Source: Candidatus Omnitrophota bacterium (GTDB taxonomy: Bacteria; Ratteibacteria; UBA8468; MWAK01). Taken from it: DNA of 45,705 bases. The notes below the pieces were generated by a model. That model made no database searches, was not told where the DNA came from, and was given only the letters and a program-made list of their open reading frames with translations. How positions within the stretch are numbered: the first letter of the stretch is position 1; the number at the start of each line of letters is the position of its first letter. The position numbers and the translations under genes are program-made. This document shows, one piece after another, positions 133-41,035 of the stretch. Location: NCBI GenBank assembly GCA_043797665.1, contig JAZDPL010000040.1, forward strand, positions 1 to 45,705, written 5' to 3'.

Positions 133-549
133 ATGGAGTCCAGCAGAATCAGGCAACAATTAGGCTTTCTTAAAAAGGAGCGCAACTACTTAGAATATAA
201 ACTTACCCGTCCCTATCAAATGGTACCTTATTCTTTAGTAAGTTTGGCTAATATCTGCGGGAAACCCAACTGCCGTTGTAAGAAGGGCAAGCCTCACGGT
301 CCTTATTGGTACCTTTCCACTAAAGAGAAAGGAAAAACCAGAATGATATATCTACCCAAAAAAGAAGTGGCTTTTTTTATTCCTTTGGTCGAGCGCTACA
401 AAGAATATCAATCCTCTCTCACCAAACTAAGAAGATTAAACCAAGAGATTATTCAGTCTCTCACCCGGATTGAAAAAGCCTCTTTTACCAAACCCGAGCA
501 GAAAATAAGGAAAAAGAGAAAGACCGATGAAAAAAGAAAAAGAGGTTAA
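133..549 (+). CDS. DUF6788-like IS accessory protein
   Basis: CGKPNCRCKKGKPHGPYWYLS motif typical of this small basic family found upstream of transposases; overlaps the transposase start. Confidence 0.8.
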   Translation: MESSRIRQQLGFLKKERNYLEYKLTRPYQMVPYSLVSLANICGKPNCRCKKGKPHGPYWYLSTKEKGKTRMIYLPKKEVAFFIPLVERYKEYQSSLTKLRRLNQEIIQSLTRIEKASFTKPEQKIRKKRKTDEKRKRG

Positions 550-2023
550 GATAATAAAACTGGGTCTGTTTCCTTACGACAAGGAAAAGGTGTTGTGGAA
601 ACTGAAGCAAAAGGAATACGATGATGTCTTCTTGCGGGGCCGGGGCAGATTAGACGATTTTATCGGTTTTCTTTATCAAACTAAAACATTAAACCTTTTT
701 GAACAGATTAAAAGCCCAATGCAAAGAAGGCCAGAAATTCCCCGGAAATTCCTCCACTACTGCCTGTGCCTGAAGCCAGTGGTGGAATCTGCCAGCATCA
801 ATCAGTTACCAGGCCGACTCCTTGAAGATACCGATACTCTGCAGGAATTAGGATTTACCATTGCGGAGATTGAAGATGGTTTTTCGGTCAAAAACAAAGA
901 AGGCAAAAATGTGCCGGTCAATATTAACGCTTTTTACGACGAACTGGAAAGACTTCCGGAAAGTGAGACCAAAAGATTCTTTGAGGAAGGACTCTTACTT
1001 TTAAAAAGTGGAAAATTCCTTCCCAGGAAGAAAGGGGTCTATGCTTTGGATGCGGTTAAGCTTCTGATTACCGGAGACAAAAAGTACCAAAACTACGGTA
1101 AGATTACCTACCGGAAAGACGGTAAGGTAATCAAGGAAAAAGGCTATAAACTGGTTTTTGTCCAGAGGGTGGATGGTGAAGACTACTATGTCGTAGCCGC
1201 TATTGTTTTACCCCTAAACCAACACGAATCTACGGTAGGTGAATTTCTGGTAGAATCAACCTTGAAGACATTAGGAGAAGGTGCCATTGATATCCTTCTG
1301 TTTGACCGGGGGTTTTCCTCTGGTCCATTCTTTGATTTTCTAAAAGAAAAGGAGATTGATTTTGTCTGTCCCACCAAAGAAGATGAACACCTAACCAGGC
1401 ATATGCAGGGACTACACCGGGCCGGAGAAGAAACAATAGCAAAACTTTCTGATGGTACCATTCTGGCTGGTTATGACCACCTGATTAAGATGGAAACCTG
1501 CCAAAGAAAGATCAACGGCATCTTAATATTAAAGCAAGGCAAGAAAGGGAGAAAACAGGTGAAAGAAGGAGAAGAATTTGGTTTTCTTACCAGCCTTCCG
1601 GTAAGTTTCTCTTCTCAGGTTGAAGGAGGCTACTCTCTTTATAGCCGGCGTTGGAAGATAGAAACCAACGGCAACCGGGAATTAAAACAAGGCTGGTATC
1701 TGAACAAATTTCCTTGCCAGTCGTGGAATGGAATCTGCACGCATATCTACTTTACCCTCTTTATGTTTAATACGGTAACCGCCTTCCGGAGCAAAAAAGG
1801 CCGCTCTCTTACCGAAAAGGGTATCATCTCATTACGACATAAGTATTTTAAACCATTTCCCCGTGGGCATGACGTTACAGTGGTGACTGGTGGATGCTGC
1901 GCCACCTTTTCCTTAAAAGAGTTTTTAGAGACTCTCAACCTGCCTCCACCCGGAAAATACCATGGTATAGGTCCTATCTGGGTTCAATATCCAAACGGAA
2001 AAAAGGAACTGTGGGTACTGTAG
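527..2023 (+). CDS. DDE transposase (IS4-like)
   Basis: ALDAV...LLFDRGF...YSRRWKIE...ELK: DDE triad with a YREK-like motif, inside terminal inverted repeats. Confidence 0.85.
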   Translation: MKKEKEVKIIKLGLFPYDKEKVLWKLKQKEYDDVFLRGRGRLDDFIGFLYQTKTLNLFEQIKSPMQRRPEIPRKFLHYCLCLKPVVESASINQLPGRLLEDTDTLQELGFTIAEIEDGFSVKNKEGKNVPVNINAFYDELERLPESETKRFFEEGLLLLKSGKFLPRKKGVYALDAVKLLITGDKKYQNYGKITYRKDGKVIKEKGYKLVFVQRVDGEDYYVVAAIVLPLNQHESTVGEFLVESTLKTLGEGAIDILLFDRGFSSGPFFDFLKEKEIDFVCPTKEDEHLTRHMQGLHRAGEETIAKLSDGTILAGYDHLIKMETCQRKINGILILKQGKKGRKQVKEGEEFGFLTSLPVSFSSQVEGGYSLYSRRWKIETNGNRELKQGWYLNKFPCQSWNGICTHIYFTLFMFNTVTAFRSKKGRSLTEKGIISLRHKYFKPFPRGHDVTVVTGGCCATFSLKEFLETLNLPPPGKYHGIGPIWVQYPNGKKELWVL

Positions 2024-2092
2024 TCTACTCAAAGGTGGTCCACTTTTGCTTGAGCGATTACCGATGGGTTGGTGACTACCCTCAAATAGGGG

Positions 2093-2180
2093 GTGGGGAA
2101 AATTTACCGCCACTTTTTCTAACTCATTTAGAAAGTGGGGGATTTTCACCGCCACAAACTGGGGAAAAGTAAACCGCCAC
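2093..2180. repeat. Three imperfect 21-22-bp subterminal repeats in the IS right arm
   Basis: GTGGGGAAAATTTACCGCCAC (2093-2113), GTGGGGGATTTTCACCGCCAC (2135-2155), CTGGGGAAAAGTAAACCGCCAC (2159-2180). Confidence 0.7.
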
Positions 2181-2260
2181 TGACAAAAATACCCCTCCTG
2201 GTTACAGGAATGTTACTTTTGCCTTGCTTAATCAGAAATTATTGATAAATGTTACGCCAA

Positions 2261-2289
2261 TTGACATCCTTTGTTTTTTAGTTTATAAT
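2261..2289 (+). promoter_or_regulatory. Consensus sigma70 promoter
   Basis: TTGACA (2261-2266), 17 bp, TATAAT (2284-2289); AGGAGG ribosome-binding site before GTG 2328. Confidence 0.75.
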
Positions 2290-2327
2290 ATTTTGTGGTA
2301 TAATACAAAACACAAGGAGGGGGTATC

Positions 2328-2576
2328 GTGAAGACTAAATTAGAAATAAAGGAGAGATTAGATAAGGCGAAACAAGAAAATAATTTTTTTGAACATATCC
2401 TGCTCGGTTTTGCTTATGAATTTTACGACAAAGGTGTAGAGATAGGATTTCAAAATACCCTCAGCGAATACAGTGGTCTTCTTCAGATATTGAAGTCTAG
2501 AGAAATAAAAGACTTGGCGGGTATAGAAATTTGTGAAAAATTTATAGATATAGCGAAGTGGGTTTTAGAAAATTAG
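2328..2576 (+). CDS. Hypothetical protein (island cargo)
   Basis: 82-aa ORF with strong ribosome-binding site and promoter; AT-rich. Confidence 0.6.
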   Translation: MKTKLEIKERLDKAKQENNFFEHILLGFAYEFYDKGVEIGFQNTLSEYSGLLQILKSREIKDLAGIEICEKFIDIAKWVLEN

Positions 2577-2586
2577 GGGAATTTCG

Positions 2587-3063
2587 ATGGGGGAAATTAA
2601 ACCACTATCTGAATTTATAAAACCTGACAAGATCCTTGCTTCACTGGCAACAATTGAACCGCTTTCAGATAAAGGAAGGCGGATAACTATTGAAGATTTA
2701 CAAAAATATGTCAGCGAAGCAGAATTGAAAAAAGAAGTACCAGAAAAAATAGATGGAATTTTTGAAGCAGCAAAGATGGCTTTCGTTTATAGTTATTTCT
2801 ACTATCCTTTCTTCACAATAGCAGCTCATTATTCTTTACTGGCTGTCGAAGGTGCCCTGAAATTGAAACATAGAACTGAATTTCCCAAGGAACCTATAGA
2901 AAATTCAATATTGCATAAAATTATAGGAAATTTAGTTAAAGAAAAAATTATCAAAGAAAAAGATAAGGAGAAATATGATGTAAGCAGAAAATTAAGAAAC
3001 ATGTTTTCTCACACTGCAAAATTACAATTACTACCTCCTGGGCATTACGTTAGCAATCATTAA
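2587..3063 (+). CDS. Putative HEPN-like protein
   Basis: Helical pattern LLAVEGALK and a C-terminal RxxxxH motif (LRNMFSH). Confidence 0.55.
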   Translation: MGEIKPLSEFIKPDKILASLATIEPLSDKGRRITIEDLQKYVSEAELKKEVPEKIDGIFEAAKMAFVYSYFYYPFFTIAAHYSLLAVEGALKLKHRTEFPKEPIENSILHKIIGNLVKEKIIKEKDKEKYDVSRKLRNMFSHTAKLQLLPPGHYVSNH

Positions 3064-3111
3064 AGAATCTTGTCAACAGATAAACTCCCTCTATTGCAAA
3101 AAGGAATTCCA

Positions 3112-5088
3112 ATGACCGCAGCCCTCTATATCAGGGTTTCAACCCTCAACCAAATCGAGCGCGAAAGCCTCAAAAACCAGGAAGAAAGACTTGTTGCTTA
3201 TTGTAAGGCAAGCAATATAGCAGAACACAAGGTTTACAAAGATGCTGGTGTCTCAGCAAAAGATATTAAAAGACCTGCCCTCGAAGAACTGATGCAAGAC
3301 ATCAAGCAGAAAAAAATCAGTCTGGTGATAGTGACAAAGTTAGACAGAATTACCCGTTCCCTCAAGGATTTGATCGAACTGATGGAGTTTTTCGAGGAAA
3401 ACAAAATCAAATTCATAAGCATAACCCAGAGCATAGACACAACAGGACCAATGGGCAGATTCATGCTCAATCTGCTCGGCTCTGTTGCCCAGGTGGAAAG
3501 AGAAATGACAGCAGAAAGAGTAGGCGAGGACATGCTCCACAGAGCCTTGGCAGGAAAATGGAACGGAGGCCCTGTTCCTTATGGCTACACGATAAAAAGA
3601 AGGATAATCCGGGAATTAAAAGAAAAAGGCCTGCCGGAACACGAAGCAATAGAGCAGGCAAATAAAACAGCACTTGAAGCAAGAAGGCTTTATATTGATG
3701 AAAAAGAAGCAGAAACAGTCAAACAAATTTTTGATTTCTATTTGCAGGAAAGAAGTTTAAGAGGAGTAACCAACAGACTAAACACCGAAGGCATAAAAAC
3801 AAGAGAGAATTTCCCCTGGGCAACTTCTTCAATTTTAAGAGTATTGTCAAACCCAACTTATACAGGCAAAATCTGGTATGGCAAAAGAAAAACCAATCTT
3901 TCTGGCAAATTGGAACCGGTTTCAAAGCAGGAATGGAAAATAGTTCAGGGCGAGCATGAAAGAATAATCCCTGACGATACCTTTTACAGGGTTCAAGAGC
4001 TAATTAAGGAGAGAAGTTTCAAAAATACAAGAGCAAAAGAAACCTATCTCCTGTCTGGATTAGTAAAATGCGGCAAGTGTCAAGGTCCGATGTATGGCTA
4101 TACCTATAGAAGAAAATACAAAAGCAAAACAACCGGCGAGGAAAAAACTGAGAATTATTTCTGGTATAAATGCCACAACTATGCCTCAAAGGGCAGTTCT
4201 GTATGTACAGGCTTAACTCTGCCAGGAAAAGAACTTGAGGGTTTTGTTATTAAAAATATGAGTGAGCTTTCAAAAAACAAAAACTTTCTCAATGACAAGA
4301 AAGAGTTGCTTGATACTCTGAATAAAAAGGGCAAACCTGAAGATTCAACAGAACAGGAACTTAAAAATCTCGTTTCTGAGGAGAAAAACCTCCTTGAACG
4401 CCAAAAAGTGCTTCTGGACAAGTTGGAATGCCAGGTAATAGACGATCTCGTGTTTAAGAAGGAATTTGAGCGTTTAAAAGGGCTTTTGGACCAGAATTAT
4501 ACTATCCAGGATAAGTTAAAAGCACGCTCTAAAAACTTTGAATTTAACAAGATAGCACTTAATAACGCTTTTGAGCAGCTTGCAAACTTCAACAAGAACT
4601 TGGAGTTCCTTGACATAGAGGGCAAAAAAGCGCGGCTCGGGGCAATTATAAGCAAGGTTATTGCAGGTGAAGGTAAAGTAGTTGATGTGGAAATGTTTTT
4701 TGATGTACCTGAGGTTGTGGAGATGCTGGCAAGGGTGCCAAGTACTGGTTTGGGTGGGTTCAGACTTGTTGAGGATGTGTCCCGCACGGTTGCCCCTGCG
4801 GGAACCTGGGCCACCCCAAAAAGGCCTGCCGGTGCGGAGCGGCTCAGATTGCCAAGTACCGCAGTAAACTCTCCGGTCCCCTTCTTGACCGGATTGACCT
4901 GCACCTTGAAGTCCCGCCGGTACCCTTCAGCCACCTTTCCGACAACCGTCCGCCCGGAGAGACCTCCGCGGCCATCCGCGCCCGCATCTGCCACGCAAGA
5001 AAAGTTCAGTCCGCCCGCTATTCTTCTTCCCCCTCTGATTCTACCTCCCCCTTTGCAAAAGGCGGGTTCCCTATCCCCTGCGGGATAG
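3112..5088 (+). CDS. Large serine recombinase (integrase); C-terminal ~99 aa read through the att junction
   Basis: YIRVST catalytic serine, KLDRITRS, recombinase domain, CGKC...YKC...C zinc ribbon, coiled coil. ATG 3112 after AAGGA is preferred over TTG 3070. Confidence 0.93.
   Translation: MTAALYIRVSTLNQIERESLKNQEERLVAYCKASNIAEHKVYKDAGVSAKDIKRPALEELMQDIKQKKISLVIVTKLDRITRSLKDLIELMEFFEENKIKFISITQSIDTTGPMGRFMLNLLGSVAQVEREMTAERVGEDMLHRALAGKWNGGPVPYGYTIKRRIIRELKEKGLPEHEAIEQANKTALEARRLYIDEKEAETVKQIFDFYLQERSLRGVTNRLNTEGIKTRENFPWATSSILRVLSNPTYTGKIWYGKRKTNLSGKLEPVSKQEWKIVQGEHERIIPDDTFYRVQELIKERSFKNTRAKETYLLSGLVKCGKCQGPMYGYTYRRKYKSKTTGEEKTENYFWYKCHNYASKGSSVCTGLTLPGKELEGFVIKNMSELSKNKNFLNDKKELLDTLNKKGKPEDSTEQELKNLVSEEKNLLERQKVLLDKLECQVIDDLVFKKEFERLKGLLDQNYTIQDKLKARSKNFEFNKIALNNAFEQLANFNKNLEFLDIEGKKARLGAIISKVIAGEGKVVDVEMFFDVPEVVEMLARVPSTGLGGFRLVEDVSRTVAPAGTWATPKRPAGAERLRLPSTAVNSPVPFLTGLTCTLKSRRYPSATFPTTVRPERPPRPSAPASATQEKFSPPAILLPPLILPPPLQKAGSLSPAG
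4780..4803. other. Putative att junction (island/comM boundary)
   Basis: Dyad TCCCGCA-cggttgcccc-TGCGGGA centred on TG 4791-4792, exactly where comM homology (TGC CCC TGC GGG = CPCG) begins. Confidence 0.7.
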
Positions 5089-5342
5089 GGGGATGGAGGG
5101 GGATTTCCACCAACGCCCTCCTGCCCTCCCGCCACATCAAGGAATGCTGTGTTCTCACCCCGGAAGCCGCAGACCTCTTGAAGCAGGCGATGGAGAGGTT
5201 TGAATTGAGCGCCCGCTCCTACGACAAACTGCGCAAAGTCTCCCGCACCATCGCAGATTTGGACGGCTCCAGTCAGATAGAAGTCCAGCACATCTCCGAA
5301 GCCCTCCAGTACCGCGCCCTAGACCGCAAGGTCTGGCTGTAA
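4791..5342 (+). pseudogene. comM: 3' half of comM/yifB Mg-chelatase-like AAA ATPase, split by the island
   Basis: Frame absent from the ORF track translates CPCGNLGHPKKACRC...YRSKLSGPLLDRIDLHLEVP...LSARSYDKLRKVSRTIADL...HISEALQYR-stop. In-frame TGA at 4770 and no start codon before the junction. Confidence 0.92.
5028..5106. repeat. REP-like palindrome (CCCCCTTT...AAAGGGGG type) in frame inside comM, with a nested 27-bp hairpin
   Basis: TCCCCCTTTGCAAAA[GGCGGGTTCCCTATCCCCTGCGGGATA]GGGGGATGGAGGGGGATTT; comM frame stays open. Confidence 0.7.
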
Positions 5343-5371
5343 CTCTTTTTACTGCTGTTCCACTTCAATTA

Positions 5372-5380
5372 TGGTATAAT
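5372..5380 (+). promoter_or_regulatory. Extended -10 promoter of cassette 1
   Basis: TGGTATAAT (TGnTATAAT) 16 nt before ATG 5397. Confidence 0.5.
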
Positions 5381-5396
5381 ATTTAAATGGTGAAAC

Positions 5397-5615
5397 ATGA
5401 AACCCATAGACTATACCCCGATTGAACGTAATAAAAAGTATAAAGGCAAGTTTCTTGCGACGGTACGTCAGCGTGGTAAAATCAAGGTCCTTGCTGTTGG
5501 CAACAATCCAGAACAAGTCCTGAATGAAGCCTGGGCGAAAGGATACAAAAAACCCCACCTTACCCGGGTACCGTCAAGAAAATCTACTGCGGTTGTTTTT
5601 TACCATGTCCCTTAA
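5397..5615 (+). CDS. Small DUF5678-like protein (partner of aspartyl protease)
   Basis: KYKGKFLA...VLAVG...A...G pattern; overlaps the downstream protease gene. Confidence 0.55.
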   Translation: MKPIDYTPIERNKKYKGKFLATVRQRGKIKVLAVGNNPEQVLNEAWAKGYKKPHLTRVPSRKSTAVVFYHVP

Positions 5616-6000
5616 ATTCCCTTATGTTCTCCATGAAGGTTTCTATCGTCCGATTATTAACATTGATTTTCTAAAACCTGAAGGTGGACTATTTGAATTT
5701 GATGGTTTGATAGACTCAGGCGCACCTTGGTGTCTCTTCCCTGGATTTATTGCCACTCTTTTAGGTCACAAAATCCTGAAAGGAAAACTCCGCCATATGA
5801 AGATAGGAGGACATACGATTACCGCCTACATGCACAAAACCAGTACTTCTGTGATTACCAAAGACTTTGTCTGGGACATTTACTTTTCTCACGATATTGA
5901 TGACTGGGATTTTGGCATTTTAGGTCAGGACCTTTTCTTTTCAAATTTTGAAGTTACCTTCAATTACCCCAGGAAGGAAATTCTATTAAAACCTTTTTAA
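5605..6000 (+). CDS. Retropepsin-like aspartyl protease
   Basis: LIDSGA catalytic motif and GILGQD motif; ATG 5605 overlaps the upstream gene end. Confidence 0.8.
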   Translation: MSLKFPYVLHEGFYRPIINIDFLKPEGGLFEFDGLIDSGAPWCLFPGFIATLLGHKILKGKLRHMKIGGHTITAYMHKTSTSVITKDFVWDIYFSHDIDDWDFGILGQDLFFSNFEVTFNYPRKEILLKPF

Positions 6001-6099
6001 ATCCTCACTCCGGACGCTGCAGACCTGCTGAAACAGGCGATGGAGAGGTTTGAACTCAGCGCCCGTTCCTACGATAAACTCCGCAAAGTCTGGCTGTAA
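6001..6099 (+). repeat. Diverged copy 2 of the comM 3' end, with a 93-bp internal deletion
   Basis: Aligns to 5151-5240 then 5334-5342; translates ILTPDAADLLKQAMERFELSARSYDKLRKVWL-stop. Confidence 0.93.
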
Positions 6100-6112
6100 A
6101 ATCTCTTACCTT

Positions 6113-6142
6113 TTGACGAAGCAATTACAGATAATTTATAAT
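6113..6142 (+). promoter_or_regulatory. Promoter of cassette 2
   Basis: TTGACG (6113-6118), 18 bp, TATAAT (6137-6142); ATG follows only 10 nt later, so a near-leaderless mRNA is likely. Confidence 0.6.
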
Positions 6143-6152
6143 ATCATCCGAA

Positions 6153-6560
6153 ATGGTGAATAATAAGTCTAAACAAAAAGCTATCAATTTCTGGCTGGCA
6201 TGCACCCAAGATAATTTAGAAGCCGCCAAAGCGATGTTTGTATCGGGAAAGTGGAGCCTATGTATGTTTATGTGTCAGCAAACGGTAGAGGCTTTATTGA
6301 AAGCAGTATTTATCGTTAACAAAGGGAGTCGTCCAGAATATATCCATAAACTTCCAAATCTACTTCAGTTGACGGGCATAACCGTACCAAAATCCATTGA
6401 TACGAAAATACTCAGGATTGATGCGCATTATATCAAGGCACGGTACAAAGAGGACCGGTTTGACCCGCGTATTTATAACAAAAAGAACGCAAAAAATTTG
6501 CTTAAGGACACTGAGGATGTATTACAATGGTTTATTCGCAATCTGAAATTAAAAATATAA
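6153..6560 (+). CDS. HEPN domain protein (HEPN-MNT pair)
   Basis: W...DNLEAA...FMCQQTVEALLKA...YIHKL...YIKARY pattern; coupled to a nucleotidyltransferase. Confidence 0.88.
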   Translation: MVNNKSKQKAINFWLACTQDNLEAAKAMFVSGKWSLCMFMCQQTVEALLKAVFIVNKGSRPEYIHKLPNLLQLTGITVPKSIDTKILRIDAHYIKARYKEDRFDPRIYNKKNAKNLLKDTEDVLQWFIRNLKLKI

Positions 6561-6874
6561 CCAGACAGTTGGTAAAACTGCTCCGTAAAAAGATACCGGT
6601 TGAAACGGTAATCCTTTTTGGTTCCTATGCCTATGGTAAACCATGTAAGCATAGCGACATAGACTTGGCTGTAATTTCCCAAAAATTTAATCGGATGAAT
6701 GACATTAAAAGAATTATGTTACTTTCTGATTTAACCAGGAGAGTCAAAACTCGTTATCCTGTTGATATTGACCCGCTTGGATTTACCGCCGAGGAATTAG
6801 AAAAGGGGGATTATTTTAATATTACAACCATCATCCGCGAAGACGGGAAAATAATTTACGAATCTGTCCATTAA
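6527..6874 (+). CDS. Minimal nucleotidyltransferase (MNT) antitoxin-like protein
   Basis: ILFGSYAYG...SDIDLAVIS motif. Confidence 0.9.
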   Translation: MVYSQSEIKNITRQLVKLLRKKIPVETVILFGSYAYGKPCKHSDIDLAVISQKFNRMNDIKRIMLLSDLTRRVKTRYPVDIDPLGFTAEELEKGDYFNITTIIREDGKIIYESVH

Positions 6875-6884
6875 GCCCGGTTGT

Positions 6885-7028
6885 TTTAAATTATCTATCC
6901 GCTCCTATGATAAACTCCGCAAAGTCTCCCGCACCATCGCCGATTTGGACAACTCCGACCGGATAGAAGTCCAGCACATTTCCGAAGCCCTCCAGTACCG
7001 CGCCCTAGACCGCAAGGTCTGGCTGTAG
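6885..7028 (+). repeat. Diverged copy 3 of the comM 3' end
   Basis: Clear alignment from 6900 to comM 5214-5342: RSYDKLRKVSRTIADLDNSDRIEVQHISEALQYRALDRKVWL-TAG; left boundary approximate. Confidence 0.93.
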
Positions 7029-7037
7029 TTTTGCTGA

Positions 7038-7145
7038 TTGAAATTTGATGCAGAAAAGACGGTTTCTTATTGGGCCGCAGGTGCTGAATACGATCTTGAT
7101 ACTGCCAAAAAACTTTTTAAAGCAAAAAGGTATATCAATGGTTAA
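7038..7145 (+). pseudogene. N-terminal fragment of a second HEPN gene
   Basis: MKFDAEKTVSYWAAGAEYDLDTAKKLFKAKRY followed by an early stop; not in the ORF track. Confidence 0.7.
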
Positions 7146-7350
7146 AAAAGAAATTATAAGGAATTTACAAAAACTTCACAAAGCAGTGGAGGAGACCGGA
7201 ATACGAATAACAAAAATTGTTCTGTATGGTTCATACGCGAACGGCACGTTTAACCGGGACAGCGATATAGATGTTGCTATAGTGTCGCCAGTATATATAG
7301 GTCACTCCGCACCATCCATAGATATTCAAACCCGCCTTTATACTCTATAA
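7138..7350 (+). pseudogene. 3'-truncated MNT nucleotidyltransferase
   Basis: MVKKE...VLYGSYANGTFNRDSDIDVAIVSP, after which similarity is lost. Confidence 0.75.
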
Positions 7351-7422
7351 AATCTATCCATAGGTCAGGTTATCGGTAATTCTTATAGTCTATTAAAAAT
7401 GACCGGGCTATAAGCGATAATA

Positions 7423-7782
7423 TTGCTTATGGAAAAGAAAAACATCTACCATGATTTGGGTGTCAGAGTAAAAAAGATAAGAAAGGAATTAGGTATCAGC
7501 CAGGAAAAGCTGGCCTTCAAGGCCCGGATAAGTCCCACCTTTTTAAGCCATATTGAACGGGGAAGCAAAAAAGCCAGCCTCCGGACCGTGCAGAAATTAG
7601 CCGCGGCTTTAAATGTGCCCGTTCAGAATCTTTTTTCCCCACCCGGGGAACCGGTTGCCTACCTCAAGACCGAAGAAGACCTTTTCCTGCGGCGCCTGAA
7701 AGGTCTGATTGGAGAAAAGGGGGAGGATTTTAAGAAACTCCTCTATAAAATGGCCAGTTATCTGGCAGAGAGGGAAGGATAG
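7423..7782 (+). CDS. XRE-family HTH transcriptional regulator
   Basis: RKELGISQEKLA...LSHIERG...LAAALNV; start may be ATG 7429. Confidence 0.9.
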   Translation: MLMEKKNIYHDLGVRVKKIRKELGISQEKLAFKARISPTFLSHIERGSKKASLRTVQKLAAALNVPVQNLFSPPGEPVAYLKTEEDLFLRRLKGLIGEKGEDFKKLLYKMASYLAEREG

Positions 7783-7919
7783 CGGTGCGATTCCTGCCAC
7801 CAGAGACCACCTAACCACTTTTCACCTAATCTTGCGGCGACTTCACGCATTTGAACCGGAAGGTTCTATTGTAATACAATATCAGGAAAAACCGGGGCTA
7901 CCGGATTCAACTGCCGGAG

Positions 7920-9016
7920 ATGAATAAGAAATATATTATAGAAAAAGTTCGTCTGGACTGGGGGAAAATCCCGGTCCGGTTAACATTCAGTTACGGAAAG
8001 GTGGATTTTTTTCCTTCCTTATCGTCAGGCTGTATGCCGGTCAGGAAGTAGGACTTGGCGAGGTACTGGTAATCCCCAATGATTTCCTGATGTCTTTGGC
8101 CGCCTCACTGGTAGGAAGAGACGCCCGGAGTCTGGATGGTTTACTTCCTCCGACGGATAATGATGTTGACCGCATTCTTTGTGAAGCAATTTCTATTGCC
8201 CTTCACGACCTGACCGGTAAAATTTCCGGTCTATCCCTCAGTACTCTGGTTGGAGGCAGAAAAGCAGATTATATTTCTATTATGCCCTGTATTTTTCCCA
8301 ATAACCCGCAGGAAGCAGGAGAGAAAGCACACTACTTTTTCAAACAGGGCTACCGGTACCTGAAAACAAAACTTGTCGGCAGATTTGAGGAGGACCTGGA
8401 TAGAATTCGGGCTATCAGGGCGGTGGCTCCCCCGAAAGCAATACTGCAGGGAGACGCTAACAACGGCTACAAAAACTTTAAGGCCGCCGCCAGGGCGGTT
8501 AAAAAATTCGGGGAGGCCGGCCTGGATTTCTTTGAAGACCCACTGGAAGGCAGTACCGAAGACTACTGCAGGTTGAGGAAGATTGGCGGTGCCAGAATTA
8601 TGGTGGATGCGAAAGCGCGGCGTACCCGGGACCTTCTGATTACCCTGACGGCCGGAGCCGCGGACATAATTAATATTCATCCGGACCAGCCCGGCAGTCT
8701 GAGTAAGGTGGCCGCCCACGTACAGATTACCAGAGCATTTAACATTCCGGTTGCCATAGGCGGCACCGGTTATACGGGAATAGGCACCGCGGCCTACCAG
8801 CAGATGTCCGCGGCACTCACGCCGGATATGGCCTGCGGCGAAATGGGAGGTTTCTTTGACCACGGCATGCCCTGTTCTTTTGTCAGGAAACCTTTCAAGA
8901 TGGCAAAAGGATATGTTTACCTTCCGGAGACGCCGGGCAACGGAGTGGAACTGAATGAAGAAGCGATGAAGGAATTTCAGAAAGGCAGCCGTGAATGGAG
9001 ACAAAAACGTAATTAA
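7920..9016 (+). CDS. Mandelate racemase/muconate-lactonizing (enolase superfamily) enzyme, frameshifted near its 5' end
   Basis: KTK, DAN, EDP, D motifs in 8090-9016; the N-terminus MNKKYIIEKV... from ATG 7920 joins IVRL...GLGE in another frame across T7 at 8006-8012. Confidence 0.75.
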
Positions 9017-9060
9017 GCGGGAATATTCAGGCATTGACGTACCCGACCGGCAGAACGGAA

Positions 9061-9089
9061 TTGACTTGATGTATAATATGCTGTATAAT
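9061..9089 (+). promoter_or_regulatory. Sigma70 promoter of the AAA/DUF4143 remnant
   Basis: TTGACT, 17 bp, TATAAT (9084-9089). Confidence 0.65.
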
Positions 9090-9125
9090 TCACATCAAGA
9101 TAACTATTTAACAGGAAAATAAACA

Positions 9126-9598
9126 ATGAAAATCCCGAAACCCCGTTGGATAAGAACAACACTTGAGGGACCCTTATCCCGGCATAAAGTTAAGTTACTT
9201 TTTGGAGCGCGCCAAACCGGTAAATCAACCCTGCTTCATTCCCTGGTCTCATCCGACACTCTGTTTATTAACCTTCAGGACCGCCGGGAACGTTATTTCA
9301 ACAATGGGTAATAACCGAATTATGGCATCGGTGCACTTATCTGGGACGGAATTACCGGCTTTACTTCTGGCGTACGGTTTCCGGCGCCGAAGTTGATGTG
9401 GTTCTGGAAACACCGGAATCACTCATCCCCATTGAGGTGAAATGGACCGATAACCCCCGCCTGCCAGACGTTCGGCATCTGCTTACTTTTATCCAGACAT
9501 ATCCACAACAAGCGAAACACGGGTTCATTGTATGCAGGGTACCCCACCGGCTTCAAATTACTCATAACGTGACCGCGATACCCTGGCAAGAATTATAA
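9126..9598 (+). pseudogene. AAA/DUF4143 ATPase with a large internal deletion
   Basis: Walker A GARQTGKST fused out of frame at about 9290 to the C-terminus LFQQWV...YFWRTVSGAEVDVVLE...IEVK; the intact paralog at 25586 is 416 aa. Confidence 0.85.
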
Positions 9599-9619
9599 CG
9601 TGAATATTTAAGGAATTCT

Positions 9620-10144
9620 ATGCAGATTATCAGCCGGGACCCGGAAAACCGGATTTTCTACTGGGACCAGAGACCAACGCTCCTGACCGACGGAACCCTC
9701 CTTGACCTTTTCTGGACCTATGACAATCATCAGGCGATTTACCGGAATATTCATGCCCGGGAATCCGGGGACAACGGCAGGACCTGGTCGGAAATACGGG
9801 ACACCGGGGTGCCGGGACAGCCTGCACCGCCGGTATCCCTGAAAGACGGCCGGATTGCGATGGTCTACGTTGACCGTACTTCGGCGCCGGTTATTAAAGT
9901 GCGTGTAAGCAAGGACCGGGGCCGGACCTGGCCCGCAGAGACCGAAAGCCTCATCTATCGCAAAGAAAACCTGTCTCAAACTCAGAACAAGACAAGGATG
10001 CAGGATGCCTGGGCCGAGATGGGGAAATTTTCCGTGGGTTTGCCTGATACCGCAGGCTTACCTGACGGTGGGTTTGTGGCGGTTTATTACGCGGGCCCGG
10101 AGACCGACTGTACCAGTATAGAGTGGGTCCGTCTTAACGAATGA
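9620..10144 (+). CDS. Sialidase/BNR (Asp-box) protein, probably only the C-terminal part
   Basis: Asp-boxes SGDNGRTW and SKDRGRTW; 174 aa is too short for a full propeller. Confidence 0.65.
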   Translation: MQIISRDPENRIFYWDQRPTLLTDGTLLDLFWTYDNHQAIYRNIHARESGDNGRTWSEIRDTGVPGQPAPPVSLKDGRIAMVYVDRTSAPVIKVRVSKDRGRTWPAETESLIYRKENLSQTQNKTRMQDAWAEMGKFSVGLPDTAGLPDGGFVAVYYAGPETDCTSIEWVRLNE

Positions 10145-15751: not shown

Positions 15752-17524
15752 ATGTTTAATCAGGCAAGAAAAAGGGTTATATTTTGTCTGTTGATACTCA
15801 TTACTGAGAATTCAGGTACAAATGCGATGGAGATAGTAAAAGAGGGCACTGCGAAAGCGGTAATTGTCACCGCTGTGAATCCTACACATATCTCGGATTT
15901 TGCCGCGAAAGAATTACAACTGTATCTAAAAAAGATTACCGGAGCCACAATTGAGATTGTAAAAGAAGGCCATGAAGCTAAGGAATTGCCAGGAGATCTT
16001 AACCGAATATATGTGGGAAAGAGTGAGATTCTCAGGAGTTTAGGCTTGGAGTTTGAAAATTTGAAATCCAATGAAGTTAGAATTAAAACTGGTAAAGGCT
16101 GGGTGGCTCTCTACGGAAAAGATTATGATGGACCTGATAAGGTGGGTTGGCTACACCCCGGCAAAGGCATTCACTCATATAGTGACGAACTAAAAATGAG
16201 CAAATTTGGTGAGAAAGGAACATTATACAGCGTTTACCGGTTCTTAGAAAATTACTGCGGGGTAAGGTGGTTTATGCCCGGAGAATTAGGTGAAGTGGTT
16301 CCGGGAAAAAAGACCTTAATCATAGGAGAAATAGACTATCGTAAATTTCCTGATTTTGAACACCGGTTTTTTTCTGCCTTCACGGCTAATGATGACAGGG
16401 ATGCCATGCTCTGGTACTTCAGGGTCGGCTATGGCTCAGTGGATGTGGTAGAAATCAACCATACAATGTGGAATTTCAAGGATAGGTTTAAGAATACCCA
16501 TCCGGAATATTTTGCTCTTTATGATGGACAGAGAAACTATTCCTATGTTTGTTTGAGCGAACCCGGGGTTTTCACGCAAGTGGTAGAAGATTGTGAAAAT
16601 TACATTCGGGAATGCCCGCACAGCAATATTATTCCGGTGATGCCCAACGACGGATTTGTCAAACCCTGCGAATGCCCGTTGTGTAAACCATTTGATACAC
16701 CAGAACGCGGATTTGGTGGCCGGGTTTCTGATTATGTCTGGGGTTTCGTTAATAGAGTAGCAGAAGAAATAGCCAAAACCCATCCGGATAAACTCATCGG
16801 CTGTTGTGCTTATGGTGGATACCTGTTACCCCCGGAAAAGATTAAAAAATTGAACAAAAATGTTGTAGTTATGTTATGCCGGTGGCCTGTGTACAGTTGG
16901 CTGCCTGATTCCAGCCGTTTCTCCATGGCTATTAACAATGAAACCTTAAAAGGGTGGCAGGAAAAGTGCCGGAATATATATAACTGGATATATTATGATA
17001 TGCGTGCCTGGACCCCGTCTCAAGAATATGTGCCTAATGATTGTCCGCATAACCTGGCATCTGATTTCAAATTCCTTAAGGGAAAAAGCAGAGGCTTTAA
17101 TATAGAAGCCGAAACCGGCCATCCTGATTATCCACCATGGCGTTGGATTCACCTTGGTATGTCCCACCTTAACGCCTATGTTACCGCCAAGTGTCTGTGG
17201 GATGCGGACTTAAATGTTGATGAGTTATTAGCCGACTACTACGAAAAGTTCTATGGTCCCGCCAAGGATATTATGGCGGGATTTTTTGGAAGGATAGAAG
17301 ATATCTGGATGCAGGAAAACTTAGAAGAACCTCTAAATGTAGAAGGGGAGAACAGTTTAGAAAAGAAAGTCTGGGAAGTTCTCTATCCGCCGGAGGTTAT
17401 GGAAGAACTCTTAAGTTACCTGCAAGAAGCCAAGGAACTGACCAGGGATACTATCTACGGAAAGAGGATTGACCTGTTACTTTTTGAATACCAACAGGCT
17501 TATAAGGAAAGTCTAAACCATTAG
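15752..17524 (+). CDS. DUF4838-type protein with GH20/GH67-like N-terminal domain
   Basis: AAKELQLYLKKITGA, GTLYSVYRFLE...GVRWFMPG, HPEYFAL, PNDG...CECPLC. Confidence 0.8.
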   Translation: MFNQARKRVIFCLLILITENSGTNAMEIVKEGTAKAVIVTAVNPTHISDFAAKELQLYLKKITGATIEIVKEGHEAKELPGDLNRIYVGKSEILRSLGLEFENLKSNEVRIKTGKGWVALYGKDYDGPDKVGWLHPGKGIHSYSDELKMSKFGEKGTLYSVYRFLENYCGVRWFMPGELGEVVPGKKTLIIGEIDYRKFPDFEHRFFSAFTANDDRDAMLWYFRVGYGSVDVVEINHTMWNFKDRFKNTHPEYFALYDGQRNYSYVCLSEPGVFTQVVEDCENYIRECPHSNIIPVMPNDGFVKPCECPLCKPFDTPERGFGGRVSDYVWGFVNRVAEEIAKTHPDKLIGCCAYGGYLLPPEKIKKLNKNVVVMLCRWPVYSWLPDSSRFSMAINNETLKGWQEKCRNIYNWIYYDMRAWTPSQEYVPNDCPHNLASDFKFLKGKSRGFNIEAETGHPDYPPWRWIHLGMSHLNAYVTAKCLWDADLNVDELLADYYEKFYGPAKDIMAGFFGRIEDIWMQENLEEPLNVEGENSLEKKVWEVLYPPEVMEELLSYLQEAKELTRDTIYGKRIDLLLFEYQQAYKESLNH

Positions 17525-17538
17525 CGACAGACTCCAAA

Positions 17539-19089
17539 ATGGCCACATCAGGTTTACACTGGCTGGACTGGTTGATAATCGGCGTTTACTGCCTGGTGAT
17601 GATCGGCATAGGAATATTCTTTTCCCGTAAGCAGGAAACGACTGAAGAATACTTCCTGGCCGGTCGTTCTATGAACTGGTTTCCCATCGGCATCTCCCTT
17701 GTTGCCACCCTCATCAGCACCATCAGTTATCTGGCTGTTCCCGGTGAGATGATTAGATATGGACCTGCCTTTCTACTGGGTTATCTACCCGTGCCTTTCG
17801 CCTTTATTATTATCAGTACCATCTTTATTCCTTTTTTTGTGAAATTAAGGATAACCAGCGCCTACGAATACTTGGAAAAGCGCTTCAGCGGTAGCGTGCG
17901 AACCCTGGGCAGTTCCTTATTCATTCTCATCCGCCTGACCTGGATGGGTGTAGTTGTTTATACCGCTTCTCTGGCGGTAGCCAAGATGGCTGGTGCTCCT
18001 CTCGTTCCCACTATTTTTGCCGTTGGTTTTGTCGCCACCGTCTATACCTCCCTGGGAGGTATCCAGGCCGATATCTTTACCGACATCATTCAGTTCTTTA
18101 TCCTCTTTGGCGGTGCTCTCTTTGCGGTATTATATGTTGTCATTCGTCTGGGCGGAGTCTCCGGCTGGTGGGGTATGATTTTACAAGAGGTGCACCTTGA
18201 CTATCCGGTCGTCTCATTTGACCCCACTACCCGGCTTTCAGTTATGGGGTTATTTATATTTGGCTTCTTCTGGCAGATGTGCACTTATGGTTCTGACCAG
18301 ATAGTCCTCCAGAGATATTTGTGTACCCGCAATCTTAAGCAGGCTCGTCTCAGTGTTGCTACCAATTACATCGCTGACTTTTTTTTAACCATGGTCCTGG
18401 CTCTGGTCGGTTTCTCCCTTCTGGTTCTTTATCAACAACATCCTCAATTACTTTCGGCTGACATAGCGGGAGGATTGAAAGACAAGGCTGACCTCATCTT
18501 TCCTCATTTTATCGCTTTTACCATGCCCACCGGACTTACCGGATTTGTAATTGCGGCGCTTCTGGCTGCAGCCATGTCCAGCCTGGATTCCGGTGTTAAT
18601 TCCATCTCCGCGGTGGTCACGGTGGACTTCTATCAGCGCCACTCCCATAAGGTAAGGAATTTTGACCCCTTATCTTTTGCTAAAAAATTCTCTTTTATTA
18701 TCGGTTTGATTGTGACCGTCTGGGCCTGCTTTGTCAACCGGATCGGCGGAAACATCGTGGAAGTAACCAATAAGGCGAACGGCTGTTTGGTTGGTCCCTT
18801 ATTCGGAATATTTGCCTTAGGAATCCTTATCAAGAGAGCCAATTCTTTTGGTGTTGTTAGTGGCGGGCTTTTAGGTATCATAACCGGTGTCCTGGTTACT
18901 TACTCGGGGCCATTCTTTAACCGAGCCATATCTTTTATGTGGATTATTCCCTTTTCCTCCATCGTTACTTTCCTTGTGGGCTGGCTCCTTAGTTTCTTTA
19001 AACTTCCGCCATCTCAGGCGCAAATTGCCGGACTTACCTATGAAAATAACCGGAAGAATCCAAGCAAAAATATGGGAGGAATTACGTGA
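17539..19089 (+). CDS. Sodium:solute symporter (SSS; SiaT/NIS-like)
   Basis: EEYFLAGRSM, SAYEYLEKRF, DQIVLQRY, AAAMSSLDS; many transmembrane segments. Confidence 0.92.
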   Translation: MATSGLHWLDWLIIGVYCLVMIGIGIFFSRKQETTEEYFLAGRSMNWFPIGISLVATLISTISYLAVPGEMIRYGPAFLLGYLPVPFAFIIISTIFIPFFVKLRITSAYEYLEKRFSGSVRTLGSSLFILIRLTWMGVVVYTASLAVAKMAGAPLVPTIFAVGFVATVYTSLGGIQADIFTDIIQFFILFGGALFAVLYVVIRLGGVSGWWGMILQEVHLDYPVVSFDPTTRLSVMGLFIFGFFWQMCTYGSDQIVLQRYLCTRNLKQARLSVATNYIADFFLTMVLALVGFSLLVLYQQHPQLLSADIAGGLKDKADLIFPHFIAFTMPTGLTGFVIAALLAAAMSSLDSGVNSISAVVTVDFYQRHSHKVRNFDPLSFAKKFSFIIGLIVTVWACFVNRIGGNIVEVTNKANGCLVGPLFGIFALGILIKRANSFGVVSGGLLGIITGVLVTYSGPFFNRAISFMWIIPFSSIVTFLVGWLLSFFKLPPSQAQIAGLTYENNRKNPSKNMGGIT

Positions 19090-20222
19090 CATCCAAAGAG
19101 AGGTTTTTAACCGCGTTAAGGGGGGGGAAACCCAACCATATCCCGGCATCTCCTGATACTTCAAATATGCTTCCTTGCAAACTTACCGGCAAGCCTTTCT
19201 GGGATATCTATCTTTACAAAAATCCTCCCTTGCATCAGGCATATTTAGAGGTATTGAAGAAATACGGTTTTGATGGCGGTTGGGAAGCCGGCCCTGGTTT
19301 GAAAGAGGGTAACGATGGTAAGGTGGAAATTAAACAGGAGATTCTTGAGAAGACTGAAGAAAAAATCGTTGTTTGTGACCACGCTGATACTCCCGGGGGC
19401 CAGTTATGGCAGGAAGTAGTTTACCAGCGGGACAACCCACCTACACCCACCAGAAAATATATAAAAGACGTCCAGAAGGACTTTCCCTTATATTTGAAGT
19501 ATTTCTATTTTAACCCTGATTTATATGATGACCAGGAGTTTCAGCAGTGGAAAAAAGAGTTGGGAGATTTGGGTGTTAGTCGCTTATGCGTATCTCTTCC
19601 AGGGCTTCATCATTTAGTGCATTTTTTTGATGGAGGAGCAGAACAACTTATTTACGCATATTATGACTATCCCAAATTATTCCGGGAGTTTAGGGATATT
19701 CACCACGACTGGGCGATAAAGATGACCAGACGGATAATTCAGGCAAAACCGGATATTATCCTTACCGGTGGTTCTGGAACCTTGGTCTTTCAGACCCCAA
19801 AGATATTTCGGGAACTTGGTTTGCCAACCTTAAAAGAGATTACCCTGATGGCCAAAGAGGCTAATATTCCCACCTTAATCCACTCCTGCGGTAGAGAAAA
19901 GGAACTGGTGAAGATATGTGCGGAAGAAACAGACCTATCCGGAATAAATCCTTTAGAGGTACCGCCGATGGGTGACTGCACTCTAAAAGAGTTAAAGGAG
20001 AAATATGGTGATAAATTATGCCTGATGGGTAATTTGCACACTACCGATGTAATGTTAAGGGGAACCCCCAAAGACGTAGAGTGCGAGGCCAAAAGAGCGA
20101 TAGATGATGCCGGTGCAAATGGTGGATTTATCTTATCTACCGGGGACCAGTGTCCCAGGGATACCCCAGAAGAGAACCTCTATAAATTTATAGAGGTGGC
20201 AAAGACCTATGGTAAATATTGA
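19086..20222 (+). CDS. Uroporphyrinogen decarboxylase / MtaA-CmuA family protein
   Basis: MTSKERFL, IHSCG, LMGNL, STGDQCPRDTPEEN. Confidence 0.85.
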   Translation: MTSKERFLTALRGGKPNHIPASPDTSNMLPCKLTGKPFWDIYLYKNPPLHQAYLEVLKKYGFDGGWEAGPGLKEGNDGKVEIKQEILEKTEEKIVVCDHADTPGGQLWQEVVYQRDNPPTPTRKYIKDVQKDFPLYLKYFYFNPDLYDDQEFQQWKKELGDLGVSRLCVSLPGLHHLVHFFDGGAEQLIYAYYDYPKLFREFRDIHHDWAIKMTRRIIQAKPDIILTGGSGTLVFQTPKIFRELGLPTLKEITLMAKEANIPTLIHSCGREKELVKICAEETDLSGINPLEVPPMGDCTLKELKEKYGDKLCLMGNLHTTDVMLRGTPKDVECEAKRAIDDAGANGGFILSTGDQCPRDTPEENLYKFIEVAKTYGKY

Positions 20223-20239
20223 GGGAAAAAGGAGGCATT

Positions 20240-21919
20240 ATGCATGTGAAAAGGGGTGGATGGGTGGCATTGCTGGTGATGGTATTTTTGGTGAACTGTC
20301 TCAAGATTCATGCTGATATTTCTGGTTCTACAGCCAATTACGGGGGGCTCGGTCCGAATCTGGCCGCCGCCTCGTCCGGGGCAAAAATAGAGGCTGTCAG
20401 TTCGGAATACAGTATTTCTTACAACAAAGAAAAAGCCATAGATGGCAACAGGAACTATGAACATAACTGGACAAGCAAGGGAGAGGGAAATAAAGCCTGG
20501 ATTAAAATCAGTCTGGCATCTCCTGCCAAACTAACTGTTATCGGTTATAAATCCATTGGTTTTGACCCGGGCGGAAAGCCGTGGATATCTGACCGGGTTC
20601 ATAAGTTTAAAATTACTTTCAGTGATGGTAGTTCACAACTCTGTATTGTTAATCCGAACACTCTGGATGATTTTCAGTATTATGACATTGAAGATGTGAC
20701 CACCTCATTTATAAAATGGGAAGTGATTGAGAGTGGTGGTGGTAACACGGGTGCTTATGAAATTGAGGCGTATTCTTCTATCATCAACCCCCAAAAAACT
20801 GAAAAGATGCTTGAAATCGGGTATAGACGAGGACCCGACTTGCCGCAGGGCTTTCAGGATAGTGCCGGTGGTTTCCTTGGGAACAGATTAATCACTGCGT
20901 GTGGATTTTGCGGAGGTAAAGACAAAGGTACACGCCCGGAACGCTACCCGCGGGGTTTCTTAAAAAAGGTGTGGGCATTGGATTTGGCCAAAAAGGATAG
21001 TGGGTGGATTTCACTTCCGGACTTCCCGGGAGTGGAACGCCAAGGACTCTTCTGTGCCGTTGTAAATAATTCCATTTACTACTGGGGAGGTTTTAGTTAC
21101 ACGGAACCATGTTGCTACGACGACGGCTACCGTCTCTCTTACCAGAACGAGGAATGGGTCTGGGAACCCTTACCTTCTCTACCCTGGCGTCTCACTTTTA
21201 GTGGAACCTGTGCCATCGGCACTAAAATTTATGTTTTCGGGGGGCACGATTATGACAATAAGGAAGAGGGCGGAAACCACACATTAACTGACCGAACCGG
21301 AAAGATTAAGCGTATGGGTGCCCGATTTTTAATGTTAGACACTGATAACCTGGAAGCGGGTTGGCAGCATCTTGCCGAATGTCCGGGGACGCCACGGGGC
21401 GCGCCAGCCATGGCCGCCGTAGCAGGAAAAATCTATGTACTCGCAGGTACCAGCAGACCATCGGATATCAACATCGCCTGCAGTGTGGTGGACAACTGGA
21501 TGTATGACCCGGACACAAACAAATGGTCACCGCTCCCCGATATGCCGGTTTCCAGCGGTGGTTTTCCTTCCGGAAACATCGTCTTCAAAAACAGGTATAT
21601 CCTTTTAATAGGCGGATACCCGTATGACAAAATCTTAAATCCGGACGGGACCCTTCGTGATAAATATGGAACAGCATCCACATCTATAGAGAATCCTAGC
21701 TCGTACTATAATAACGTTTTTGTTTATGACACGCAGACCAACCGGTTCGGCACCGCCGACAGTTTACCGTTGAATAATTTTTTTCCTATGGCCGTGGTTC
21801 GTGGGGATGAAATCTTCTTGATTGGCGGTGAAACAGGCGGCGGGAAGATTGATGGTGTGTATTATGCACACCACCCCGACCTTCTTCTCATCGGCAAAAT
21901 AAACGAACTCAAATGGTAA
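20240..21919 (+). CDS. Secreted discoidin (F5/8-like) plus Kelch-repeat protein (NanM mutarotase-like propeller)
   Basis: Signal peptide, KAIDGN...W domain, repeated IY.FGG/W..LP Kelch units; ATG 20240 follows GGAGG. Confidence 0.75.
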   Translation: MHVKRGGWVALLVMVFLVNCLKIHADISGSTANYGGLGPNLAAASSGAKIEAVSSEYSISYNKEKAIDGNRNYEHNWTSKGEGNKAWIKISLASPAKLTVIGYKSIGFDPGGKPWISDRVHKFKITFSDGSSQLCIVNPNTLDDFQYYDIEDVTTSFIKWEVIESGGGNTGAYEIEAYSSIINPQKTEKMLEIGYRRGPDLPQGFQDSAGGFLGNRLITACGFCGGKDKGTRPERYPRGFLKKVWALDLAKKDSGWISLPDFPGVERQGLFCAVVNNSIYYWGGFSYTEPCCYDDGYRLSYQNEEWVWEPLPSLPWRLTFSGTCAIGTKIYVFGGHDYDNKEEGGNHTLTDRTGKIKRMGARFLMLDTDNLEAGWQHLAECPGTPRGAPAMAAVAGKIYVLAGTSRPSDINIACSVVDNWMYDPDTNKWSPLPDMPVSSGGFPSGNIVFKNRYILLIGGYPYDKILNPDGTLRDKYGTASTSIENPSSYYNNVFVYDTQTNRFGTADSLPLNNFFPMAVVRGDEIFLIGGETGGGKIDGVYYAHHPDLLLIGKINELKW

Positions 21920-34780: not shown

Positions 34781-35455
34781 ATGGTAGACCTTTTAACTCA
34801 GAAAGAAATCGTTTACCGGAAGATTAAAGAAGGCATCCTGAACTCCGAGTGGGTACCCGGCACTAAATTGGTGGAACGCGAATTGTGTGAAAAACTCAGG
34901 GTGAGCCGGACCCCTATCAGAGAGGCGTTTAACCGGTTGGAAAGTGAGGGTTTGTTAGAGCGGATGCCCCGATGGAGTGCTTTTGTTAAAAAACCTGACC
35001 GGGCGGAGATTATGGAGATGTACGAAGTCAGGGAAGCACTTGAAGGTGTCGCGGCCAGGTTGGCGGTTTTAAGAGCAACACCGGATGACCTGAACAAGAT
35101 GAAAGAGGCTATTGACAAAACAGAACAGGCCTTGGCAAAGGAAGGCGGGGAGGACGTCAAGGCATACAACCAGGGTGATAATGAATTTCACGAGGCTCTG
35201 GTAAACGCCAGCCACAACAGAAAACTGATAAATCTGGCTTCCCTGGGACATCTGCATGTAGAGGAAATCCCGGTAGCGTTGGATGTTAAACCGATAGAAG
35301 AACACGGACGATTAGTGGAAGACCACCGGTGTATTCTGGCATCCGTAACAGAAAGGAACGGGGAGCTGGCTGAAAAATTAATCCGGAAACACATTTCTGG
35401 TGCTATGAAAGGTGCCGCGCGGTTTTTTGACGAATCGGCCAATAAGGAGGCCTAA
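34781..35455 (+). CDS. GntR/FadR-family regulator (FCD domain)
   Basis: [40 protein letters not shown]. Confidence 0.93.
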
Positions 35456-35685
35456 TGGGATGGATAAGAGAAGTAGTGCAGAAAAGGTGTCATTCTTCCT
35501 GTCATTCCGTACTTGATACGGAATCCATCTTTAAATACGGGATTCTTCGGCGAAATACGCCTCAGAATGACAGAAAGAGAAGCAGTTTTACATTGATCGA
35601 GTTACTGGTGGTGATTGCCATAATCGCCATCCTGGCCGCGATGCTGCTGCCGGCGCTCAGCCAGGCAAGGGAGAAGGCCAGACAG
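35346..35685 (+). repeat. Direct repeat copy A: gntR 3' end plus prepilin 5' end
   Basis: Highly similar to 40672-41035. Confidence 0.93.
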
Positions 35686-40674: not shown

Positions 40675-41035
40675 CAGAAAGGAACGGGGCTCGGGCTGAA
40701 AAATTAATCCGGAAACACATTTCTGGTGCTATGAAAGGTGCCACCCGGTTTTTTGACGAATCGGGTAGTAAGGAGGCCTGATGGGATGGATAAGAGAAGT
40801 AGTGCAGAAAAGGTGCCCTTCTTCCTGTCATTCCGTACTGGATACGGAATCCATTTTTAAATACGGGATTCTCCCTACCTTGATGGTAGGGAACCCGTGG
40901 CGAAATACGCCTCAGAATGACAGAAAGAGAAGCAGTTTTACATTAATCGAGTTACTGGTGGTGATTGCCATAATCGCCATCCTTGCCGCGATGCTGCTGC
41001 CGGCGCTCAGCCAGGCAAGGGAGAAGGCCAGGCAG
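40672..41035 (+). repeat. Direct repeat copy B: orphan gntR 3' end plus prepilin 5' end
   Basis: [39 protein letters not shown] matches the gntR C-terminus; 24 bp longer than copy A. Confidence 0.93.

Follow-up and report, generated by a model that had tools for sequence, protein, structure and literature searches.

Small toxin-antitoxin-like gene modules were probably captured one after another behind comM through one homologous and one illegitimate joint, either by HFIR or by circularisation and a single crossover, with no integrase involved. The scars lie in a window of 45,705 nucleotides (the whole stretch of DNA that was analysed; contig C37 of an 86%-complete assembly, G000). There, a comM half is followed by cassette 1, tail 2, cassette 2, tail 3, and the decayed cassette 3 (Table 1). 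The tails are short direct repeats of the comM end (6004-6091, 88%; 6899-7027, 91%), and codon alignment makes it likely that both once formed the 3' ends of other, diverged comM alleles and were later displaced. Homology to the resident comM is found on one side only: the right end of each tail falls at the comM stop, and the left end abuts an unrelated cassette. These left ends are ragged and lack the att motif described below, and the starting points differ among the four comM tails of G000.

Table 1. Features of the comM array and the adjoining recombinase (window coordinates)
Feature	Position	Strand	Basis
Large serine recombinase body	3112..4790	+	Pfam Resolvase, Recombinase, Zn_ribbon_recom
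att junction, element arm joined to comM 3' half	4783..4801	+	att motif and aligned junctions
comM 3' half, CPCG to stop, open frame	4791..5342	+	Pfam Mg_chelatase, Mg_chelatase_C; TIGR00368
Cassette 1, DUF5678-like gene and 131-aa gene	5343..6000	+	ORFs, weak DUF5678 match, paralogous pair on contig C61
Cassette 1, DUF5678-like gene	5397-5615	+	DUF5678 E 0.004, below cut-off
Cassette 1, 131-aa gene with DSG motif	5605-6000	+	paralogous pair on contig C61
Tail 2, likely displaced comM end	6001..6099	+	0-3 nt past cassette-1 stop
Cassette 2, promoter-like site, HEPN gene, and minimal nucleotidyltransferase gene	6100..6874	+	Pfam HEPN, Polbeta; promoter match
Cassette 2, HEPN gene	6153-6560	+	Pfam HEPN
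Cassette 2, minimal nucleotidyltransferase gene	6527-6874	+	Pfam Polbeta/NTP_transf_2; MntA-like match below cut-off
Tail 3, likely displaced comM end	6885..7028	+	10-24 nt past cassette-2 stop
Cassette 3, decayed, HEPN-like remnant and truncated nucleotidyltransferase	7029..7350	+	ORFs; sequence
Cassette 3, HEPN-like remnant, 35 codons	7038-7145	+	label by eye
Cassette 3, truncated nucleotidyltransferase	from 7138	+	Pfam NTP_transf_2, this part only

Cassettes and a model for their capture

Three cassettes make up the array. In cassette 1, the 131-aa gene has a DSG motif and no Pfam or NCBIfam match, and may be retropepsin-like; an extended -10-like box was seen by eye at 5372-5380. Cassette 2 opens with a putative sigma70-like promoter (6113-6142, match 11/12). 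Its HEPN and minimal nucleotidyltransferase genes are adjacent and overlap, as in a HEPN-MNT pair within one operon, and are predicted to form a toxin-antitoxin module. A Pfam scan found no IntI among the 17 window proteins of 133-10141.

A general model would run as follows. A donor fragment, consisting of a comM end, its stop, and a cassette, would enter the locus and recombine either as linear DNA (HFIR) or after circularisation and one crossover. Homologous recombination within comM would close one side, and an illegitimate joint the other. The locus would gain a new comM end, and the old end, together with the older cassette, would be shifted outward. Successive captures of small, promoter-bearing, toxin-antitoxin-like cassettes would thus place the newest nearest comM and the oldest, cassette 3, farthest away. 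This order fits, because the outermost cassette is the decayed one. A cassette that has gained a tail would be flanked by homologous sequence on either side, and ordinary recombination could then spread it. Both comEC and dprA are present in the genome as open frames.

A comM half at a recombinase junction

The initial annotation treated the local comM as complete, but it is an attR-type half: it has no start of its own, begins at the CPCG codons, and is fused behind a large serine recombinase, whose ORF (3070-5088) continues out of frame into comM. Aligned junctions point to a TG core at 4791-4792, and the att motif matches once in the window with up to two mismatches allowed (0.04 expected). 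The assembly, 86% complete, yielded no comM 5' half, no rplS, and no yraN-like gene.

The comM half also contains an in-frame, REP-like palindromic insert (approximately 5042-5107), with ten other BLAST hits in the genome. A similar insert occupies the same loop in the intact comM of the relative G007, which rules it out as a sign that the half is decaying.

Mg-chelatase-like (comM/yifB) genes are targets for 12.4% of predicted site-specific serine integrases in the accessible part of one paper (PMC10083194), and the available text of another describes comM disrupted by mobile elements (PMC12378983). The comM half of the window likewise begins at the CPCG att site (4791), with the cognate recombinase beside it (3112-4790). 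The short tails differ from such elements: their starting points vary, lie hundreds of bases beyond the att site, and show no att motif; neither tail 2 nor tail 3 begins at the CPCG boundary. The recombinase junction is probably an event separate from cassette capture. The unusual divergence of the comM alleles may go back to this comM-targeting recombinase family as their supplier.

The closest recombinase homologue, 63% identical, adjoins a comM 5' half in the relative G013. The recombinase-side arm (4783-4801), joined to the comM 3' half in the window, there meets an inverted comM 5' half (G013:C248, L082), and so has the opposite orientation. This suggests inverted integration, or inversion across att sites, despite the non-palindromic TG core. 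A search with the recombinase in a collection of genome contigs gave five distant loci (23-28% identity).

Two further window features flank this region. A DUF6788 gene and a DDE transposase occupy 133-2023; contigs C44, C29, and C11 terminate in repeats of its left end, which accounts for the assembly break. Fragments of an AAA_14 ATPase gene, its middle absent, lie at 9126-9598.

Selection on the tails

Codon alignment reproduced exactly the counts given initially for both tails. Tail 2 (6001-6090) differs from positions 5151-5240 over 30 codons by nine synonymous changes and two replacements, V/I and E/D. Tail 3 (6900-7028) differs from positions 5214-5342 by five synonymous changes, a TAA/TAG swap, and three clustered replacements, G/N, S/D, and Q/R (42 codons). 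Homology of tail 3 is clear from 6899, and a probable extension of five codons to about 6885 is more diverged, with one change affecting an Ala that is conserved elsewhere. Tail 2 has an in-frame 93-nt deletion at 6082-6091, located between near-identical 10-nt repeats (9/10 match); apart from this clean deletion, it differs from the local comM by no frameshift or nonsense change, despite a dS of 0.74.

Values of dN/dS were computed by the Nei-Gojobori method with Jukes-Cantor correction, and p from base-preserving permutation. They are 0.06 for tail 2 (dS 0.74; p 0.0008), 0.25 for tail 3 (dS 0.22; p 0.05), and 0.13 for the two pooled (p 1e-4). The claim that divergence was shaped by selection at the protein level is thereby upheld. 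The accompanying yardstick, a neutral dN/dS of 1 for a local duplicate, is not: since one copy stays under selection, the proper null would be about 0.5. Against this stricter null, p is 0.005-0.036 for tail 2, 0.24-0.39 for tail 3, and 0.006-0.047 for both together.

These values bear on a plainer history, in which the genome's own comM end was duplicated in tandem, with or without gene conversion, and then decayed neutrally while cassettes were inserted independently. Tail 2 argues against it, both by rejecting a dN/dS of 0.5 and by having reached its high dS with the reading frame spared. Moreover, all five replacement states in the spans aligned earlier are present in other comM alleles, so that none is private. 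Tail 3 is more accommodating. Taken alone, it does not reject 0.5, and its nearest sequence is the local comM half (91%). Over the last 57 nt, a split chosen post hoc, it differs from that half at one site, against six to nine sites for six other alleles. This is a hint that these 57 nt were recently shared or converted; a mosaic test of tail 3 gave a permutation p of 0.08, at a different breakpoint. The AU tests described below likewise do not reject monophyly of the local copies. With all of this taken together, local duplication is very unlikely.

Alleles, relatives, and the search for donors

The tail trees comprise 90 and 123 columns, with two starred branches in each. Tail 2 is sister to the comM of a metagenome contig, L061 (support 92/93); tail 3 has no supported placement. 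Local grouping was not rejected by AU tests (p 0.059 for tail 2 and 0.32 for tail 3), nor was a grouping of all comM copies of this genome (p 0.17 and 0.20). The proposal that the tails represent other alleles draws its strength from the dN/dS of tail 2 and from replacement states shared with other alleles; the AU value of 0.059 weighs on the other side, and tail 3 alone is not decisive.

The initial expectation that the following cassette would lie directly behind an intact comM in another strain was disappointed: neither cassette 1 nor cassette 2 has that position among 65 genomes of the phylum, many of them incomplete. The comM half is matched in 37 of 40 relatives. Of 64 other genomes, five have a match to the cassette-1 protein and three to the HEPN protein; among these matches, one locus adjoins comM, in G013, where the cassette protein (31% identity) lies behind a comM half.

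The arrangement itself does recur. An intact comM followed by a cassette and a ragged tail is present in the relatives G007, G011, and G003, and the G007 tail is 96% identical to that genome's own intact comM. Tail starts differ among relatives (about aa 456-497 of 523). G009 has two comM tails in tandem; these (G009:C35, L049 2084-3160) have an identical start base and flank a HicAB pair on the opposite strand. On L061, an intact comM precedes a gene that we take, from its repeats, to be ankyrin-like, and then a tail that runs from the att core and has an internal deletion. One metagenome scan with a strict pattern yielded two loci, apparently of a single allele. Separately, a comM 3' half in G006 has a different att arm and comes after the gene for a type IV coupling protein (G006:C30, L040 9391-12489).

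Stacked halves and a second array

Contig C83 carries two further att-bounded comM halves and two further ragged tails, with MNT-HepT and DUF4258-DUF2283 pairs as cassettes. The dN/dS values of these tails are 0.04 and 0.02, at dS of 0.75 and 0.52. The last C83 half adjoins an ADP-ribosylglycohydrolase gene, and G007 has the identical neighbour. At 17078-24889 of this contig, Schlafen/RecG-like ATPase genes are interspersed with three HTH paralogues that are encoded on the opposite strand from comM, two of them starting at att junctions.

Because the local comM is an attR-type half, a second account of the tails opens: they would indeed derive from other alleles, but brought by a recombinase rather than by homology. 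Units composed of a comM 3' half, cargo, and an element arm would have been inserted in stacks at the CPCG att site, after which deletions would have taken away the arm along with 370-460 nt from the start of the half behind it, sparing the addictive cargo. Much of the setting suits such erosion. The window array adjoins an att junction next to a recombinase, and several att-bounded halves with toxin-antitoxin cargo are found on C83 and in G013. In G013, a short piece of arm and then a complete comM half come after the cassette that belongs to the cassette-1 family. On L061, the tail with the internal deletion begins at the att core; tail 2 itself has undergone a microhomology deletion; and a comM piece starting at aa 332-350 is present in 7 of 13 viral-contig loci. 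The att-junction setting, the stacked halves, and the L061 tail all count against integrase-free capture. So too, against homologous exchange, does the high dS at comM, which is 0.52-0.75 for three of the four comM tails, far above the 0.11-0.28 of the tails at other genes described below.

Erosion of stacks nevertheless requires four separate deletions, two in the window and two on C83, whose left ends all fell within 24 nt of a stop. It does not account for the scars at metG, ychF, and other genes or for the copies of gene heads, and the near identity of the G007 tail to its intact comM also speaks against it. We regard it as rather unlikely, and less likely than capture through one homologous and one illegitimate joint.

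The same scar at other genes

The displaced-tail pattern is not specific to comM. Five tails belong to other genes of the genome: metG; ychF; a HEPN gene; a gene on contig C88; and a GntR gene in the window (34781-35455). Their pooled dN/dS is 0.25 (p 2e-4), with dS of 0.11-0.28. The GntR tail alone has a dN/dS of 0.76, which counts against integrase-free capture. Directly after metG, 8 of 8 relatives have what we take to be a pyrH-like gene; in G000, cassettes follow metG.

These tails come from a genome-wide scan, with 17 matches in one listing and 18 rows in another, of which nine were inspected and five kept. Candidates on C11 and C58 were dropped as tandem paralogues, one on C50 as the template repeat of a diversity-generating retroelement (DGR), and one on C78 as a repeat beside an integrase (presumably a tRNA end). 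Rows for C6, C30, C52, C55, C85, and C87 were set aside without inspection, either as paralogues of long genes or as dispersed repeats; a row for C79 lies outside the five kept and is described below. The comM arrays themselves escape the scan, because the comM halves were not called as genes.

Mirror-image copies, of gene heads rather than tails, are present at C60 and C67. Together with the non-comM tails, they indicate that either flank can be the anchor and that an att site is dispensable. The helicase role of ComM, to which the initial annotation had pointed, is likewise dispensable, since metG and ychF carry the same scar. As for the capture route that it had proposed, with one homologous and one illegitimate joint, one-sided scars at genes with no recombinase site speak for it, and the failure to find a donor locus among 65 genomes of the phylum speaks against it. 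Overall, the earlier reading of the tails was partly supported: largely right in kind, tentative in detail, and blind to the recombinase junction.

A bolder version of integrase-free capture can be imagined, in which cassette and tail form a self-spreading unit that builds arrays resembling integrons, with comM, metG, and ychF among the genes affected. An undescribed process would join a small module, at its stop codon, to a point within the tail of a conserved gene, and the tail would then be a built-in homology arm with which the module could hop behind any allele of that gene. We regard this version as doubtful.

Two loci deserve separate description. In the window, a diverged 441-nt repeat (35346-35762 and 40672-41112), composed of the GntR tail and a prepilin-like gene's head, lies on either side of a cassette of 5.2 kb, and the joint overlaps the stop of the last cassette gene. 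At G000:C79:57316-59066, a tyrosine-recombinase-like gene has a 59-nt copy of its own end upstream, before a small two-gene cassette.

Relation to known systems

Integron cassette arrays consist of small, co-oriented cassettes with tight ends, the newest first, and the window array is alike, with a probable newest-first order. It differs in having no fixed attC-like site, its separators being comM coding fragments of variable length, and in that promoters lie within the cassettes themselves.

The kind of scar is already known. The available portion of PMC3240628 describes both HFIR and circularisation followed by a single crossover, the latter leaving duplications of 109-950 bp. In common with the window are one homologous anchor, one non-homologous joint, and the absence of an integrase; the partial duplications there resemble the 62-161 nt tails here. 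The illegitimate joint is variable and non-site-specific, as in an HFIR scar. HFIR is also defined by microhomology of 3-10 bp at the illegitimate joint, by RecA dependence, and by entry through transformation or conjugation; the window scars are candidate members. What differs is that a single anchor was used repeatedly, that the alleles are separated by dS values of up to 0.7, and that the joints lie at stop codons.

A second parallel is found in V. cholerae's T6SS (type VI secretion) immunity arrays and the orphan 3' ends of Rhs and CDI genes, for which sequential displacement has been proposed (PMC5361080, as far as its accessible text goes). There too, a new module is placed by a conserved anchor, and older modules and 3' ends move outward; in those arrays, copies within one genome do not cluster on a tree. 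The same text also draws integron arrays into the comparison. By contrast, the anchor here is an ordinary chromosomal gene, the tail is a functionless piece, and the cargo is an unrelated toxin-antitoxin-like pair. A literature search, with subscription journals mostly outside its coverage, found no account of ragged comM tail arrays.

On this reading, the scars document how an uncultured bacterium, lacking an integrase dedicated to the task, acquires toxin-antitoxin-like modules behind its conserved genes, and they preserve the sequence of earlier transfers together with the alleles of the donors. The capture route meets a serine-recombinase hot spot at comM, so that both can be compared at a single locus.

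Joints at stop codons

For 11 measured tails (nine in G000, plus G007 and G011), the left joint lies between -8 and +43 nt from the stop of the last cassette gene. Ten of these 11 joints fall at -10 to +30 nt, an interval that takes in 1.9% of strand positions drawn at random. To the right, homology ends within 1 nt of the anchor stop in 9 of 10 cases. Outside this count are the tails of G003 and L061 (near a stop by eye), the second G009 tail (near a stop), and the first G009 tail, which starts not at a stop but beside the promoter end of the opposite-strand HicAB cassette.

HFIR makes no prediction that joints should hug stop codons, so the placement of 10 of the 11 is unexplained by it. One explanation would be an undescribed, gene-boundary-aware route, for example RNA-templated or translation-coupled, that makes the illegitimate joint where a reading frame ends. 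The tight placement of the joints on both sides is what such a route would leave, and the genome does encode a reverse transcriptase, within a DGR. However, the cassettes retain promoters, which a copy of a transcript would lack; one G009 tail starts beside a promoter end; and no enzyme is tied to the scars. In addition, 56% of stops in the genome have the next gene within 30 nt, so survival of tight, non-polar inserts may explain the stop-codon bias. A boundary-aware route is very unlikely, about as much so as local duplication. The strong bias of the joints is the part of these observations that could still matter.

The DGR (G000:C50:5469-10040, L109) contains a caspase/FGE-sulfatase target gene, bAvd, the template repeat, and the reverse transcriptase, with an addiction-module/ParE pair situated between target and avd.
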